A DNA stretch of 64,000 nt from an uncultured Nitrososphaerota archaeon (GTDB taxonomy: Archaea > Thermoproteota > Nitrososphaeria > Nitrososphaerales > Nitrosopumilaceae). Below are positions 2,727 to 29,009 of the stretch, one piece after another. How positions within the stretch are numbered: the stretch's first letter is position 1; each line of letters opens with the position of its first letter. The position numbers and the translations under genes are program-made. The notes under the pieces are model-generated. The model was given only the letters and a program-made list of their open reading frames with translations. It was not told the DNA's origin and ran no database searches. The DNA is taken from the NCBI GenBank assembly GCA_963701075.1, contig OY969559.1, positions 1,184,577-1,248,576 of the forward strand, written 5' to 3'.

Positions 2727-3168
2727 GCAGTGTGGATTGCGTTTAGAGTATTTAATCCTTGGAACTAAAATTGGAATATGTGTACATGAAAAAATCTATA
2801 GGTGAATCCAAAATACAACATTTACAAAAAAGCAGAATTACTCTGGAATTAATTCTAACTTGTTCACTCACACAAAGTACAATCCAACACTTGGGAGCAT
2901 TCTAAAAGTAGAGCAACTCCTTGTAAAATCCAGAGTTTGATTCCAAGGCACAATTAACAAAAAACTTAGTTATCATGAGGCCGCAAGTTCTTAACGTCAT
3001 CTTACGTTATCTGGAACAATCTAACAAAGTTCTGCTTGATGAAGACGTTCAATCATCTGTATTCATGCTAGTCCAACTTCAAAGAAAAGCTGGGAACAGG
3101 CAAGATCACTGTAGGTTGTAAACATCTGATTGAATTGGCAAGCACGTCAAGTAAATATATAGTAGAAA

Positions 3169-3193
3169 ACTATAATATTATAGTATATTACTA
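3169..3193. promoter_or_regulatory. AT-rich promoter region with perfect 16-bp palindrome ACTATAATATTATAGT and nested TAGTA-TAT-TACTA palindrome immediately upstream of the wHTH-HEPN gene; candidate operator plus TATA box
   Basis: Read directly: 3169-3184 is its own reverse complement; 3181-3193 second palindrome; 11 bp before the ATG at 3205. Confidence 0.4.
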
Positions 3194-3204
3194 TATTATA
3201 TACA

Positions 3205-4278
3205 ATGGACGAGGCAGCATACAAAATATTAGACATATTATCAAGGAACCTAGGCCAGTCTCTGTCTATACGTGAGATTGCTGGAAAGATAGAGACAACA
3301 TATGGCGGAGCCTATTATGCCAACATAAATGAAAAGATCCACGAGATGACAAAAAAAGGAATAATCGTTCTGTCAAAAGCAGGCAGGTCATCGCTTACAT
3401 CAATTGACTTTAACAACTATCTGATAACAGATTTACTTGCAGAGATGGAACTTGGACGAAAGCAAGACTTTCTTCAAGGAAGACAAGAGATGCAGATTCT
3501 GACAATGGAAATCTGCACACACTTGGACAGTTTTCCTCTAGTCAAATCAATTATCATGATGAATCCAGAAAGAAACGCAAAATTAAACAAGACTGAGCTA
3601 CTAATTTCCATAAAAAGAACCGAGCAAGATAAAGTGGAAGAGACAAAAATGGGCATTCATGCCATTCTGGATGCCCTCCAAAACCTACACAACATAAGGA
3701 TAGATTACATGATACTTGAAGACAAGATGCTTCTTAACCTCCTAAAATCAGATGAAATTAATCCTGCAAGAGAGATGCTGTCTAACAAGATAGTCATTTT
3801 GAACCCGCAGGATTTCTGGATAGAAGTCAAAAAAGCGGGCATGGAAGGAATTAAAACTATTTCAGAAGAAGACGTGACAAATCCGGCAAAAATTACAGCA
3901 GAAGATTTGATATCCAACCTTGCACGATTTGGTTACACAGAATTTGGACCAAAAATAAAGCAAGGAAAATTGATCTGTATAGAGTACATCGTAAGCGCAA
4001 TAATGTTCCAAAATGATGCAAGGAGAATGGATGCTATTCCAATAATACTTGCAAAGAACTCTGGCAGAACAAACTATGATCTACTGCTCTTTTTTGCACG
4101 CAAATATGGTTTTGGTGGGAAAATGTTGGGTATACTGCATGCCCTAAGGAATCTTGTGGCACATGGCATGCCTAAGATTAAAGAACCAATAAGACTGCTT
4201 GAGGCAATGAAGATTAAAGAAGTCAAGGCAAATGAGAAGAGCATAAAGGAAAAGTTGAGACTGTACAATGTCACTTGA
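3205..4278 (+). CDS. Three-part protein: N-terminal winged-helix DNA-binding domain, central region, C-terminal HEPN-like domain (Rx4HG: LRNLVAHG)
   Basis: N-terminus resembles MarR/ArsR wHTH (ILDILSRNLGQSLSIREIAGKIETTYG...KKGIIVL); C-terminal ALRNLVAHG matches the HEPN Rx4-6H signature; 11-nt overlap with downstream NTase gene. Confidence 0.45.
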   Translation: MDEAAYKILDILSRNLGQSLSIREIAGKIETTYGGAYYANINEKIHEMTKKGIIVLSKAGRSSLTSIDFNNYLITDLLAEMELGRKQDFLQGRQEMQILTMEICTHLDSFPLVKSIIMMNPERNAKLNKTELLISIKRTEQDKVEETKMGIHAILDALQNLHNIRIDYMILEDKMLLNLLKSDEINPAREMLSNKIVILNPQDFWIEVKKAGMEGIKTISEEDVTNPAKITAEDLISNLARFGYTEFGPKIKQGKLICIEYIVSAIMFQNDARRMDAIPIILAKNSGRTNYDLLLFFARKYGFGGKMLGILHALRNLVAHGMPKIKEPIRLLEAMKIKEVKANEKSIKEKLRLYNVT

Positions 4279-4777
4279 CAACACAAAACTGCTAGATTTT
4301 CTAGGCGAGATAGACAAAGAGCTCAAGCGCAAGATAGTGGTGGTCGCAGCAGGAGGAACTGCCATGACACTTCTCAAGACAAAATCGTCTACAATAGATG
4401 TAGATTTTACTATTCCAAGCAAGTATTTTGATGATTTCAAACATGCACAAGATATAGTTCAACCTGGGTTCAAAGTGGACCTTTTTCATGATGGTGCTGT
4501 GTTTATCAACATGCTTCCAGAGGATTATCTGAAAAGGAGCAAACTAATCAAGACAAGGCTAAAAAACATAGAACTTAGGACCTTGCATCCTGTTGACATA
4601 ATTGTAACAAAAATTAGCAGGTTAGATGAAAGAGATGAACAAGATATCAAAGCCTGTATTGAGAAATTTACGATAAAAAAGGACGAGATCGTAAAACGGG
4701 CAAAGCAAATGGGATATGCAGGTAATGATGATATGTTTCGAGCTAATACACAAATTGTTTTAAGAAAGTTCTTCTAG
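4268..4777 (+). CDS. Minimal nucleotidyltransferase (MNT-like, Pol-beta fold) partner of the upstream HEPN-motif protein
   Basis: 169 aa; hGG-x13-DVD (VVVAAGGTAMTLLKTKSSTIDVDF) matches the NTase hG[GS]...DhD signature; translationally coupled (overlap) with upstream gene. Confidence 0.45.
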   Translation: MSLDNTKLLDFLGEIDKELKRKIVVVAAGGTAMTLLKTKSSTIDVDFTIPSKYFDDFKHAQDIVQPGFKVDLFHDGAVFINMLPEDYLKRSKLIKTRLKNIELRTLHPVDIIVTKISRLDERDEQDIKACIEKFTIKKDEIVKRAKQMGYAGNDDMFRANTQIVLRKFF

Positions 4778-4820
4778 GTTCCTTGGAAGATTAATTATAT
4801 CCAATTACATAGACTCTTCA

Positions 4821-5363
4821 ATGAATCTACGAGAAGCAGAGGCTGTAATCCGAGAGACACTTGACCAGATAAAAAAACATGAAATAGAGCTGCACCAAGG
4901 ATGTGTGGCATGTCATGTCATATTTTCGCTAACACAAAAGTCTGGCAGATCAGAGCAAGATGCAGCAGACCTCATGGCCGAAGTCCTAACTGGTGACCCA
5001 GAATTAAATTCTGAACTAATAGAGACTGTAGAGCAGATACACATGACAGAGCGGGGAATGGGTGGGGCATTTCCAGCAAGAGAGCGAGAATCAAAGGACA
5101 GTTACCTTGAAGCATACCTTACAAACGTACTCGATGAGCTTGCATCAGACTTGCAGCATGCAACACATGATGTAATACTCAGAAAGTTATTGCTAAGCTA
5201 CATGTCACTATATATCGCACAAACAATTGGGGTAGATTACCACGCGGCAACTGAAGAGCTGTATTATTTACTTCGAAAAGATGATGGCAAAAATTCAAAG
5301 ATTGCGCACATTATAGCAAGATTTGAAGAAAAGCTAAAAAAACAAGAGTCCAACATGCGTTAG
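4821..5363 (+). CDS. Hypothetical protein
   Basis: 180-aa ORF, helical, no recognised motif. Confidence 0.4.
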   Translation: MNLREAEAVIRETLDQIKKHEIELHQGCVACHVIFSLTQKSGRSEQDAADLMAEVLTGDPELNSELIETVEQIHMTERGMGGAFPARERESKDSYLEAYLTNVLDELASDLQHATHDVILRKLLLSYMSLYIAQTIGVDYHAATEELYYLLRKDDGKNSKIAHIIARFEEKLKKQESNMR

Positions 5364-7487: not shown

Positions 7488-8603
7488 TTACTTGTAATTT
7501 GCCATGGCCAACTGATCTATTATCTCTTCTATTGCTTGTGCAAGATTTTTTCCAAGATGCGGCGGAAGTTTCTGAGTCTGGACAAGTATGTTTATTCGGT
7601 CTACATATGACTGCATCACTGCAATCAACTCTTCGGTGTTTTTGATCTCGCTTTCTTTGCCGTCTTTTGATAAAACTGATATGCTTTTTTCAAGTTTTTT
7701 GTTTAGGTTCTGATAATATGATTTTTTGTCTTCCAACTCTTTTTTAGATTCTGCTAATTGATTCATTCTAGCCAGCAGTTTATCGGTAATCTGGCTCAAA
7801 ATCATCTTGTTATTCTCATTTTCAACAGGATCGTTCATTACGTACACCTGTTTTTTTAACCTGGAAATGTCGTCGGTCATATCAGCAAAAAAGCACTCTA
7901 GGATATCTTTTTGAAGATTAGAAAGACGCGACTCTAAAACCAGTTGTTTCTGGTTGCCCACAATCTGGTTTAGGAAAACACGCCGGGCATAATCATGCTT
8001 TATGATTCTCAATATCATTCTTAGAAGAAAGAGATGTGCGCATACGTTGACAATTAGAAATGAAATCTGCAGCATGATGAGATTTTGACTCTGTTGCTTG
8101 CCGTACATGCCAAGATCTGCCGTTAAACTATTGTCGGCAACTATGAATGCCAGGTTTTTTTCCTGCAATTCTGCAGTATCTGCGCTTGTCATGGCGCCTC
8201 CTTTGGAGCCTAGCATGTAAGCAACGTCTGCCCTGTATGCAGCCCACGTGTCTTGGACTTGCTTGAAATCATTTGGAAAGACAGAGGGAACAGCTATTAC
8301 TATCGAATTCTCATAAGATGGTATTGGATACAAAACTTGTGATGGCACAACACCACCATGGGAAAGAGAATCAATGTTTGTGTCAATACTTCTCATGACA
8401 TCTACTGGTAAAGCTTGACTGTGCAATTGTAGATAATCAATAGTTCTTGCATAAAGCAATTCTGCAAGATATCTGTTCTTACCGCTTGTGTTGATGGTAT
8501 TGCCAAGATACGTTGATTGGTTTTGGTAAATTGATAGAACTAGGAAACTACTTACAATTATGGCAATTTGTATTGCAATGATTACTCCTATCTTGTACTT
8601 CAT
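7488..8603 (-). CDS. Membrane sensor protein: periplasmic PilJ/NarX-type (nitrate/nitrite-like) sensing domain between two TM helices, cytoplasmic coiled coil, no output domain
   Basis: 371 aa; TM at residues ~5-25 and ~180-200; GKNRYLAELL motif resembling PilJ/NIT N-terminal sensor domains; C-terminal heptad-rich region. Confidence 0.45.
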   Translation of the reverse strand: MKYKIGVIIAIQIAIIVSSFLVLSIYQNQSTYLGNTINTSGKNRYLAELLYARTIDYLQLHSQALPVDVMRSIDTNIDSLSHGGVVPSQVLYPIPSYENSIVIAVPSVFPNDFKQVQDTWAAYRADVAYMLGSKGGAMTSADTAELQEKNLAFIVADNSLTADLGMYGKQQSQNLIMLQISFLIVNVCAHLFLLRMILRIIKHDYARRVFLNQIVGNQKQLVLESRLSNLQKDILECFFADMTDDISRLKKQVYVMNDPVENENNKMILSQITDKLLARMNQLAESKKELEDKKSYYQNLNKKLEKSISVLSKDGKESEIKNTEELIAVMQSYVDRINILVQTQKLPPHLGKNLAQAIEEIIDQLAMANYK

Positions 8604-8942
8604 GTTATTTTTACACTGTACATACCTTAATCGACATATTAAGATCTCCTCTACAAACCATGTCTAGGATAACACGTGAGCGGTATGTTTTTCTGGAAAA
8701 AAATTAGTTTCTATTGGAATCATGATCTAGACAAAATTTCTTCAAACCATTACGAATGCCTGTAAAAATTAAATTGCTTTTGGTAATTATTATCATATCA
8801 GAAAATCATACTTATATTCCGGGACACTGGTTATCTACTAATGTACAAATCACAAATCAAAATACAAGATATTGAAACTTTAGGTTTTGCTATGTGGAAT
8901 GTGAAAATAAATGATGTTTTCCCAATTTTGGGTGAAACATAA

Positions 8943-9443
8943 ATGGTGTCAGAGACAAACCATAATGGTCAGAAAAAAGAAAATTTCACTTTAAGAATCA
9001 ATGCAGAATTGATGAAGGAAATAAAAGAAAAATCAAGCGAAGAAAACGTCAGTGTCAATCATTTTATCAGCAAGTTACTGGAAACTGCTACGTATTGGAA
9101 TATACATGCACCCAGTGCCGGATGGACACCTATGCCAAGACAGATTCTTCTTGAATTAATAGACCGATACTCTTATGATGAAATAGAAGCACTAGCTCAT
9201 AAACTTGGAAAACAAATAGCGCGAGATATGCTTTTGTTTACAGGCGGCAAGTATGATGTTGACGCTTGGCTCGATTTTCTAAGGATCAGATCAGATATTT
9301 CCGGTTTTCAATTCTCCGAATATCGAGATGGCAACACAATCAAATGTGTTCTTCATCACGCAATGGGAAAAAAGTGGGCCGTTTGGTTTAAGAGCTTTTA
9401 TGAGATTGTACTCAATAGATATGAAGGCAAATGTAGTATTTGA
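8943..9443 (+). CDS. Hypothetical protein with ribbon-helix-helix-like N-terminus
   Basis: 166 aa; FTLRINAELMKEIKEKSSEENVSVNHFISKLLE resembles Arc/MetJ/CopG RHH. Confidence 0.35.
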   Translation: MVSETNHNGQKKENFTLRINAELMKEIKEKSSEENVSVNHFISKLLETATYWNIHAPSAGWTPMPRQILLELIDRYSYDEIEALAHKLGKQIARDMLLFTGGKYDVDAWLDFLRIRSDISGFQFSEYRDGNTIKCVLHHAMGKKWAVWFKSFYEIVLNRYEGKCSI

Positions 9444-9825
9444 TGTCAGTGAGAATACGCTCACAATGGAAATCCGTAAATAATTTCATGAAACAATAAG
9501 TTGTTAATTGTTTGAATTTTTCATTCTATCTTCATAGTTTGATTGCACCCATAGTGAGTCATTTATAGTCAAAGAAACCCACTTTCATCCTATGTGAATC
9601 TGTTAAAGGATCATCTTTAATTTTTTATGCATTGAGGATAATCATGCATTGTTATAAATACAAAAAAAAAAACAAATGGTTGGCAAATCTACGTTACCAA
9701 TAACCAAAAAAGGAAAGCGTAAAGCCGGCACTATAAGAAACGCCTTTGATATATCGTCAATAAATGGTAAAAATGGCAATATTGTAGGAATTGCAAAAAT
9801 CATTGCAGGATTCTGTCGGTGTTAG

Positions 9826-10188
9826 GTGAATAATATGAAAATTCTACTAATAGATGACAATCAAGACATTACAACTATGATGCACAAGTATCTGACTATC
9901 AAAGGACATGACTGTATCGTCTCAAATGATGGAAGAAATGGCCTTACCATAATCGAGGGGCAGGAGTTTGATGTCATTTTGTTAGATTTGGCAATGCCTG
10001 AATTTACCGGCATTGACATTGTAAATGACCTTTACAATTCAGGAAAAATAAAAGAAAAGAAAATAATTTTGTTTACTGCCTCTAGTGTCAAAGATGACGA
10101 AATAAGAAATCTTATAAAAAAAGGAGTACATTCCTGTCTTAAAAAACCCGTGAAATTGGATTTATTGATAAAGTCTATCGGAGGGTAG
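9826..10188 (+). CDS. Single-domain response regulator (CheY-like receiver)
   Basis: 120 aa; LLIDDN...D (phospho-acceptor in VILLDLAMP) ...K pattern of REC domains. Confidence 0.8.
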   Translation: MNNMKILLIDDNQDITTMMHKYLTIKGHDCIVSNDGRNGLTIIEGQEFDVILLDLAMPEFTGIDIVNDLYNSGKIKEKKIILFTASSVKDDEIRNLIKKGVHSCLKKPVKLDLLIKSIGG

Positions 10189-27605: not shown

Positions 27606-28943
27606 TTATAGCTGAACCCTATAGTAATCCCATCTTTCAGGATCAAACTGCCTTACAAACTCGATCTTCTCGTTGCGCTTTTTCCTTTCTTGTATTACGT
27701 CCCTTAGGGCAAAGCTTGAGAGGTATTTGTATCCCTTGGATTGAGCCTGCATTAAAAATAACTGGCGCATCTCTCGTCCGCCCTTTAACCCCCAATACCC
27801 CATCTTCAATGCAATGGGCTCTAAAAATATTGTATCCCCTTTTCCCCAATGTGGATCATTGATATCAGAACGGAGTTTGTAATTTTCTAGTGACGTTCCC
27901 TTTACAAAACCCACTATCGGACCGTTTCCATCTCCAATCCTTAATGTGTTGAGCAACATTTTTGGATCCCGTACAGAATCTGCAAAACCTGTTCGCAGAA
28001 ATTGGAGAGGATATGGCAACTCTTGGAAAATTCCAAAGAGTGTATTGATAAATTCGTCTTTTTGCCGTGTCGTGATAGGGTCAATAGAGGTTACTAGCTG
28101 CACCTTGTCGTAAATCACCGCTGCTTGATTTTGTATTTCATTTTCTCTAAGCCTCATGAATCCTAATACGTTATCCATAAATGACTTGCGCATAGTTCTT
28201 GGCAACGCTTCTAAAATTTGGTTGCACATCTCGGATTCGTTGTTTAGGAGATCTTCAAAAAATGCAACAGCACGGATTGCTATTAAATTGGGGTGCCATG
28301 CCAAAGAGTGTGCATTCTTCTTTGCCATCTCAAGTGCATATGAAAAATCACCCATGGCATAACCGCCAATTCTATCTGATACAGAAAGAAACCACCCAAG
28401 TTTATTGTAATATTCAGTCTTTTGTGGGTTATCCCTTGCACTGTCTGACACAGAATAAAAATGCTCAATTAACAATTCTGCTTTTTCTTTATTCTCTCCC
28501 GTCCAAGGATATGTCGTTCTCAGTATCATTGCTGATACGATGTTGGGATCAATATTGGATTCTTTTAGTAACGACTCTAATGTTTTGTCAGTACTGACAA
28601 AATTGGCCGCATCAGGCTCATGTGGCTTGTCAACTCTTTTCTGAGGGTCATAATCATGAAACAAAGCCGCTACAAAGAGATATTTTGCATCGTCCTTTGT
28701 AATGAGATTCTGTTGGCTCTGCCACTGCGCTGCCAAGAGTGTGACATATGTGACTTCTAATTCGTGGATTATGTTGTGGTACCCATAATAATCAATACCC
28801 AGTCCTTTCTGATGGAACAGGTCTATTGTATAATCAAGTATCTTGGAATAACAAGAGGACTCAAGCCCGCACTGGTTTAAGGTCTCTAGTATTTTATCTC
28901 TGAGATTGCTGGTGCTGTATATCTCTTGCATTGGAACTTTCAC
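27606..28943 (-). CDS. HD-domain-like hypothetical protein
   Basis: 445 aa; H...HD...D arrangement (YHNIIHELEV ... ALFHDYD). Confidence 0.4.
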   Translation of the reverse strand: MKVPMQEIYSTSNLRDKILETLNQCGLESSCYSKILDYTIDLFHQKGLGIDYYGYHNIIHELEVTYVTLLAAQWQSQQNLITKDDAKYLFVAALFHDYDPQKRVDKPHEPDAANFVSTDKTLESLLKESNIDPNIVSAMILRTTYPWTGENKEKAELLIEHFYSVSDSARDNPQKTEYYNKLGWFLSVSDRIGGYAMGDFSYALEMAKKNAHSLAWHPNLIAIRAVAFFEDLLNNESEMCNQILEALPRTMRKSFMDNVLGFMRLRENEIQNQAAVIYDKVQLVTSIDPITTRQKDEFINTLFGIFQELPYPLQFLRTGFADSVRDPKMLLNTLRIGDGNGPIVGFVKGTSLENYKLRSDINDPHWGKGDTIFLEPIALKMGYWGLKGGREMRQLFLMQAQSKGYKYLSSFALRDVIQERKKRNEKIEFVRQFDPERWDYYRVQL

Positions 28944-29009
28944 TTGTATGGTACAGGTACCATAAAAGCTTAATTGGAATTAGAAAAGGAATCAGACGCT
29001 GAAGTTTTC

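Follow-up and report, generated by a model that had tools for sequence, protein, structure and literature searches.

What kind of two-gene system lies near the start of a 64,000-nucleotide stretch of an uncultured Nitrososphaerota archaeon (Nitrosopumilaceae; GenBank assembly GCA_963701075.1, contig OY969559.1, positions 1,184,577 to 1,248,576; hereafter the window), and which of its two products would be the harmful one? Gene 1 (3205–4278, plus strand) encodes a protein of 357 amino acids and gene 2 (4268–4777, plus strand) one of 169 amino acids. The original prediction, made from the letters of the window, had read gene 1 as a HEPN-type toxin fused to its own DNA-binding regulator and gene 2 as the nucleotidyltransferase antitoxin. 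Our comparative and structural analyses lead to a different assignment, with gene 1 as the proposed autorepressor and antitoxin-like partner and gene 2, a polymerase-beta-type nucleotidyltransferase of the family DUF6036, as the proposed effector, or toxin-like, partner. By analogy with the bacterial systems, we put at about one in two the probability that the locus is an archaeal analogue of AbiE and MenAT that has not been described before, composed of an autorepressor-antitoxin and a nucleotidyltransferase effector. The more general proposal of an autoregulated, toxin-antitoxin-like module with its own operator is well supported by sequence comparison.

The two genes overlap by 11 nt, from the start of gene 2 to the stop of gene 1 (4268–4278, plus strand; ATGTCACTTGA), and an overlap of the same length is found in most of the loci fetched for comparison; it may couple the translation of gene 2 to that of gene 1. 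A hairpin with a 9-bp stem (4770–4790, plus strand) contains the stop codon of gene 2, with the T-rich tract TTAATTATAT after it; as a hit of a scan for the bacterial-type consensus only, it marks a possible end of the operon. The elements from which the original prediction was built, namely the gene sizes, the 11-nt overlap, the string LRNLVAHG, the signature hGG-x13-DVD and a 16-bp palindrome upstream of gene 1, all lie where it had placed them, and its view of a tightly coupled pair resembling a toxin-antitoxin module has held up. Where it went wrong is in interpreting them as HEPN/MNT: both the central element of that reading and its polarity are mistaken.

Gene 2 had been taken for a small nucleotidyltransferase, and both the family match and the conservation of its catalytic motifs bear this out. 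The protein matches Pfam DUF6036 (PF19502) with an E-value of 3.9e-12 and a score of 46.7 bits, the cut-off being 23.6, and the match recurs in all 19 of the 19 homologues scanned. The polymerase-beta-type signature hG[GS]-x9-13-DhD is present with a spacer of 13 residues: motifs I and II (4352–4405, plus strand) comprise G29-G30, the 13 residues that include K39 and T42, and D44-V-D46, and a second group of invariant residues (4595–4645, plus strand) comprises D110, T114-K115-x-x-R118 and R122-D123-x-x-D126. In an alignment of 20 sequences from five archaeal lineages, including Nitrosopumilaceae, Nitrososphaera, Thermoplasmata and Bathyarchaeota, the residues G29, G30, K39, T42, D44, D46, D110, T114, K115, R118, D123 and D126 are invariant. 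Because the catalytic residues are invariant across the archaeal copies, gene 2 looks like an active enzyme of the polymerase-beta type. Sequence and profile searches of the Protein Data Bank (PDB) with gene 2 returned a spurious match to RNF4 only. An identical protein is on record from Nitrosotalea, which identifies the source of the window as an ammonia-oxidizing archaeon of Nitrosotalea-like type. A full-text search of the literature found DUF6036 in no paper, and its pairing with the gene 1 family and an operator is, as far as could be found, described here for the first time.

Which of the two partners can be dispensed with? Gene 2 is truncated or absent next to a full-length gene 1 in at least eight loci (L001, L013, L018, L022, L024, L025, L027 and L034). 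The complete genome of Nitrosopumilus ureiphilus (L001) retains a remnant of 57 amino acids; remnants of 61, 97, 66 and 113 amino acids are left in L013, L022, L025 and L034, respectively; Nitrosotalea sp. TS (L024) has a 108-amino-acid open reading frame with homology over its first 94 residues; and L018 and L027 have no gene 2 at all. In addition, gene 2 carries a frameshift in L012 and an internal deletion in L029. Gene 1 is broken in a single locus, L039. If gene 1 were a toxin kept in check by gene 2, genomes with gene 1 alone should not exist, and the polarity assumed in the original prediction therefore cannot be maintained. The preferential decay of gene 2 while gene 1 persists argues instead, at the level of gene content, that the nucleotidyltransferase would be the harmful partner.

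A further line of evidence comes from the promoter of gene 1. The perfect 16-bp palindrome ACTATAATATTATAGT (ACTATAAT/ATTATAGT; 3169–3184), which lies exactly 20 nt before the ATG, had been proposed as an autoregulatory operator. Alone it is not significant, with an expectation of 0.6 in the window at up to three mismatches. It is, however, the junction of a larger arrangement, where the right half-site of one operator is separated by a 4-nt spacer, ATAT, from the left half-site of the next. Both operators have the form TATAGT-N5-ACTATA. Palindrome 1 (3158–3174) has its left half-site in an AT-rich, TATA-like stretch (AAATATATAGT), and palindrome 2 (3179–3195) ends 9 nt before the ATG; each is 17 bp long, and they are 21 bp apart, or two helical turns. 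The expectation for TATAGT-N5-ACTATA is 0.13, and two copies were obtained in none of 100 shuffles.

The same architecture, two units of half-site, N5/6 and half-site joined by N4, stands upstream of gene 1 in all 37 of 37 loci, which represent five archaeal lineages including Nitrososphaera, Iainarchaeum, Thermoplasmata and Bathyarchaeota. Its four half-sites switch together, to TATGGT in six loci, to TATAGG in L001 (N. ureiphilus) and to TATAGC in L037 (Thermoplasmata), and the two inner spacers likewise change together between 5 and 6 nt. Across 407 kb of fetched sequence, the palindrome is practically confined to the gene 1 promoter, where it occurs in two to five copies at a spacing of 21–22 bp. 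The recognition helix of the gene 1 protein follows the half-site: it begins with G-[ST]-G-D-Y-K-N-I in six of six TATGGT loci and with G-G-A-Y-Y-A-N-I in the TATAGT loci, and L011 has the TATGGT-type helix though it is otherwise nearer the TATAGT group. Because half-site and recognition helix covary, the comparison provides good evidence for recognition of the half-sites by the winged helix.

How might the array act? The first half-site is TTTATAGT in about 15 of the 37 loci, a sequence resembling an archaeal TATA box that might function as one, or else a TTTATAG element is located just upstream. By virtue of this half-site or of the upstream TTTATAG, the array overlaps or follows a TATA-like element, and it reaches to about 10 nt from the ATG. 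An array position of this kind is typical of archaeal repressor sites, and the placement would be that of a repressor. What stands of the original proposal is that the palindrome is part of a real, conserved array; regulation of the operon through that array is what we infer.

Several further observations concern the array. A Nitrosopumilaceae metagenome-assembled genome (L005) has a 21-bp operator unit (TATAGTAGAAAACTATAATAT) repeated five times in tandem upstream of gene 1 (3887–3987), and L041 and L042 have three operator copies each; the operator copy number is evidently evolvable. In L018, L022 and L027, where gene 2 is mostly or wholly lost, one half-site tends to be degenerate (TATAAT, TATTAT or TATACT), which hints at a relaxation of autoregulation after loss of the nucleotidyltransferase, in a sample too small to judge. 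Two degenerate matches to the palindrome lie far from the cassette in the window, at 27607–27623 (TATAGCTGAACCCTATA) and 28947–28964 (TATGGTACAGGTACCATA); they are probably chance occurrences because their half-sites differ from the cognate TATAGT.

Gene 1 itself belongs to an unannotated family. No model of Pfam, NCBIfam or PADLOC matches it, and PDB searches with the single sequence and with a 48-sequence profile gave nothing meaningful. The family comprises 334 clusters at 90% identity, nearly all of about 357 amino acids, and 219 representatives at 50% identity; the most distant full-length matches share about 22% identity. An AlphaFold2 model based on 48 diverse members (predicted local distance difference test score, pLDDT, 93.7; predicted template-modelling score, pTM, 0.90) divides into a winged helix, a long helix, an alpha/beta domain and, at residues 232–353, a helical bundle. 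The winged helix-turn-helix at the N-terminus (residues 1–67; 3205–3405, plus strand), with its recognition helix at residues 38–50 (YYANINEKIHEMT), had been recognized before and is clear in the model. The alpha/beta domain (residues 94–214; 3484–3846, plus strand) had been overlooked; it has a degenerate nucleotidyltransferase fold with neither GG/GS nor DxD in the family alignment, and only E131 and W205 are conserved there. Since hG[GS] and DxD are missing from the family alignment, the domain is very likely catalytically dead. The C-terminal helical bundle (residues 222–357; 3868–4275, plus strand) has no recognizable HEPN fold and holds most of the invariant residues of the family (G243, Y244, E260, K284 and Y354, with N238, E246, G248 and R273 near-invariant). 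In a Foldseek comparison of the model with the PDB, the top matches are two-domain adenylyltransferases of the AadA/ANT(3'')(9) type (E 1.6e-3, probability 0.97), and the model thus suggests, for the body of gene 1, a degenerate nucleotidyltransferase domain of MNT/AadA-like type to which a helical bundle is joined.

Two other assignments for gene 1 were considered and set aside. PF25212 (HVO_A0114) matches 15 of the 48 members, but only over the winged helix and below threshold. The idea that the body of gene 1 is an inactivated duplicate of gene 2 is unsupported, hhalign giving a probability of 2.6% over a stretch of 28 columns only. That stretch pairs gene 1 residues 67–94 (IDFNNYLITDLLAEMELGRKQDFLQGRQ; 3403–3486) with gene 2 residues 1–30 (MSLDNTKLLDFLGEIDKELKRKIVVVAAGG; 4268–4357) and corresponds in both proteins to the helix before the first nucleotidyltransferase strand; it is at most a faint hint that the dead domain might be an ancient copy of gene 2.

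Taken together, the two genes behave like an autonomous cassette, and their genomic location is variable. A gene 2 homologue lies directly downstream of gene 1 in nearly all loci, while the genes that flank the cassette in the window, folD, MTHFS and purN among them, are shared only with its two closest relatives. The 135 neighbouring genes of the other loci are spread over 122 Pfam families, each of which occurs three times at most, and no conserved third gene was found among them. A few neighbours are related to defence or mobility (ApeA, pAgo and TnpB-like genes and DDE transposases). In L040, a 482-amino-acid ApeA-type gene (ApeA_NTD1 and HEPN_Apea; 8590–10038) follows the DUF6036 gene after 17 nt on the same strand and may form a small defence island with it or represent a three-gene variant of the cassette. 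In L041 (9389–14802) and L042 (9389–15000), several DDE_3 and DDE_Tnp_1 transposase genes are found 1.5–7 kb downstream of the cassette, and on its other side this Nitrosopumilus-like contig carries uvrABC. The genome scan used alignment A1, alignment A2 being too divergent.

In the window, folD and the operators are separated by an unusually long spacer of 478 bp, which contains a 48-codon open reading frame (2976–3122; MRPQVLNVILRYLEQSNKVLLDEDVQSSVFMLVQLQRKAGNRQDHCRL); neither tRNA genes nor Rfam elements were found near the cassette, this spacer included. Just 3' of the cassette lies an open reading frame of 180 codons (4821–5363) with a weak match to PADLOC PDC-S01 (E 0.009) and to no other family; among the fetched loci, it is present only in the two closest relatives (L002 and L003).

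Based on these observations, we propose the following model. The winged helix of gene 1 would bind two or more 17–18-bp palindromes and thereby repress the operon; these palindromes overlap the TATA-like element or come after it, and they extend to no more than about 10 nt from the start codon. Translated in coupling with gene 1 through the 11-nt overlap, gene 2 would supply an active minimal nucleotidyltransferase. By analogy with the nucleotidylation of tRNA acceptor ends, its activity may be harmful when unrestrained. The dead nucleotidyltransferase-like domain and the helical bundle of gene 1 would bind the gene 2 product and neutralize it. It is conceivable that neutralization is steric, or that gene 1 induces a self-modification of gene 2 at the invariant Thr42 near the catalytic aspartates, as in AbiEii and MenT.

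Could the HEPN reading of gene 1 be rescued? In this reading, gene 1 would be a wHTH-HEPN RNase that acts as the toxin and carries its own regulator in the same polypeptide, with gene 2 as the MNT-type antitoxin that neutralizes it, as in the type VII system HepT/MntA. The window does contain R315-N-L-V-A-H320 (4147–4164, plus strand), within LRNLVAHG at residues 314–321, 25 close homologues keep R315 and H320 almost without exception, and gene 2 is indeed a minimal nucleotidyltransferase. The conservation of the motif is restricted to this lineage, however, and breaks down even within it: H is replaced by N in L003, at 89% identity, and in L013, and by Y in L020, R is replaced by K in L007 and by Q in L008, and the motif is also lost in L031. 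No member with less than about 51% identity has it, the consensus among these being LLGLLxALxxxKP. An R-x4-H motif appears in 26% of shuffled gene 1 sequences, and the stricter R[NDHQ]x3H in 4.3%. In the model, R315 is at the end of helix 304–317 and H320 in the next loop. With the C-terminal domain modelled at a pLDDT of 92.2, structure comparison placed no HEPN protein among the top 60 matches. A Pfam scan of 48 gene 1 members at E <= 0.1 yielded, among the best 25 of 29 families, winged-helix-type and scattered chance matches only and no HEPN family, and gene 1 has no HEPN match in NCBIfam or PADLOC. The HEPN assignment thus falls on a chance-level motif that is not conserved and has no fold or profile match behind it, and a textbook-looking Rx4H string is not sufficient to call a HEPN protein. 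Were gene 1 nonetheless an active toxin, losing gene 2 while retaining an intact gene 1, as happened in at least eight loci, should have been lethal. We consider the HepT/MntA-type model largely refuted and very improbable.

The main rival to the toxin-antitoxin reading, which we regard as less likely although it accounts for several of our observations, sees in the two genes a dedicated pair of regulator and enzyme whose role is cellular and non-toxic. Gene 1 would then act as a repressor that senses a ligand, a nucleotide or small molecule bound by its adenylyltransferase-like body. Gene 2 would modify a protein, a metabolite or an antibiotic-like compound; if a protein, this might be gene 1 itself, at the invariant Y244 or Y354. 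The resemblance of the gene 1 body to the antibiotic adenylyltransferases AadA, ANT and KNTase favours such a role, and so does an operator private to the gene 1 promoter, as is seen with many local repressors. Other features favour it and also weigh against our own reading. The neighbours are mostly ordinary metabolic, or housekeeping, genes; searches of PLSDB plasmids, INPHARED phages and IMG/VR contigs returned no copy of the cassette; and the proteins are fairly well conserved within Nitrosopumilaceae, at 53–93% identity, which also fits a cellular, non-toxic function. Two further points weigh against our own reading. Among the truncated copies of gene 2, some belong to metagenome-assembled genomes, where errors of assembly could account for them, and that of L012 is a simple frameshift. 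Neither protein nor its homologues match AbiEi, AbiEii, COG5340 or DUF1814 in Pfam, NCBIfam or PADLOC, there is no PDB sequence match, and the likeness of motifs III and IV and of Thr42 to those of AbiEii was judged by eye, with differing spacing. On the other hand, the genomic position of the pair differs between all but the closest relatives, and in about one-fifth of the loci the enzyme gene decays and the regulator stays intact, a pattern that would be unusual if the enzyme were the regulator's only target; moreover, the nucleotide-binding motifs of gene 1 are gone, and no functionally linked third gene is conserved nearby.

A single two-subunit nucleotidyltransferase, split in the manner of HI0073/HI0074, is a further and improbable explanation. 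Gene 2 would provide the catalytic site and the helical domain of gene 1 the substrate-binding part, and the winged helix would either anchor the enzyme on DNA or serve autoregulation only. The tight coupling of the genes and the concentration of the most conserved gene 1 residues in the helical domain are what such an enzyme would lead one to expect. The persistence of gene 1 without gene 2 in many loci is not, and gene 2 has a C-terminal helical part of its own, with the conserved K/R and RDxxD motifs; there is also no indication of a substrate.

What would a nucleotidyltransferase toxin-antitoxin module mean for these organisms? Ammonia-oxidizing archaea are globally important nitrifiers, and their toxin-antitoxin and abortive-infection systems are almost unstudied; we found no paper on the gene 1 family. 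If the proposed reading is true, it gives a function to a Pfam domain of unknown function and to an unannotated family of 219 representative clusters at 50% identity, and it extends the AbiE/MenAT type of nucleotidyltransferase toxin control to archaea. The switches between TATAGT, TATGGT, TATAGG and TATAGC are an unusually clean natural set of changes in winged-helix operator specificity and could be used to study and engineer archaeal repressors.

How does the cassette compare with known systems? With HepT/MntA it shares a minimal nucleotidyltransferase and a partner with a helical domain, but it has neither a HEPN fold nor a conserved Rx4-6H, gene order and sizes are different, and the pattern of decay shows a nucleotidyltransferase that is dispensable and not protective. 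The likeness to AadA, ANT(3'')(9) and KNTase is one of fold and is confined to gene 1, for which these enzymes are the top match over residues of about 90–357, with a nucleotidyltransferase domain followed by a helical domain. Unlike them, gene 1 has an extra winged helix and is devoid of the glycine and aspartate motifs needed for catalysis; only about 10% of residues are identical, and the C-terminal domain, compared by itself, does not match an adenylyltransferase.

The closest parallels are found in AbiE (AbiEi/AbiEii) and MenA/MenT, nucleotidyltransferase toxin-antitoxin modules that were formerly classed as type IV and are now argued to be type VII. In AbiE the regulator gene comes first, the genes overlap, the promoter has inverted repeats, and the nucleotidyltransferase has motifs I–IV, including a motif III with Lys/Arg and a motif IV with +DxxD (Dy et al., PMC3985639). 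There are two promoter inverted repeats in abiE and four in rv2827c, and the nearest folds to the body of AbiEi are antibiotic adenylyltransferases (Beck et al., PMC7319586). The antitoxin AbiEi was shown to bind AbiEii and to cause its auto-phosphorylation at T65, a residue two positions ahead of D67-x-D69 (preprint 10.64898/2026.01.19.700257).

At the level of sequence, our cassette likewise has its regulator gene first, followed by an overlapping nucleotidyltransferase gene. Gene 1 combines an N-terminal winged helix with an adenylyltransferase-like body, as is reported for AbiEi, its direct structural match to AbiEi being weak. The promoter again has multiple inverted repeats, which appear here as conserved elements that change in concert and covary with the recognition helix, and the nucleotidyltransferase is the decaying partner. 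In gene 2, hGG...DxD is followed by K115/R118, similar to motif III, and by R122-D123-xx-D126, similar to motif IV; T42 precedes D44-x-D46 by two residues, as in T65-x-D67-x-D69. These are likenesses only and do not establish homology. The differences are nonetheless considerable. Gene 1 is much larger than AbiEi (357 versus about 196 amino acids) and gene 2, at 169 amino acids, much smaller than AbiEii, whose motif residues alone reach K173-D192; the spacer between motifs I and II has 13 residues here and 15 there; the operators are 17–18-bp palindromes at 21–22-bp spacing and not 23-bp repeats; and the hosts are archaea, with a putative TATA box as the promoter context.

Taking these points together, we tentatively suggest, as a possibility somewhat short of an even chance, an archaea-wide and so far undescribed family of nucleotidyltransferase toxin-antitoxin or abortive-infection systems in which the AbiE/MenAT logic either evolved independently or diverged past sequence recognition. 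Its antitoxin-repressor would consist of a winged helix and a dead copy of an adenylyltransferase, its toxin would be a minimal nucleotidyltransferase of 170 amino acids (DUF6036), possibly controlled through self-modification at Thr42, and its operator code would be portable and co-evolving, three or four recognition-helix residues determining which half-site is used. The cassette is most like the bacterial AbiE toxin-antitoxin system and not a HEPN/MNT pair, and we class it as one that works like AbiE/MenAT, not as a member of the AbiE families.

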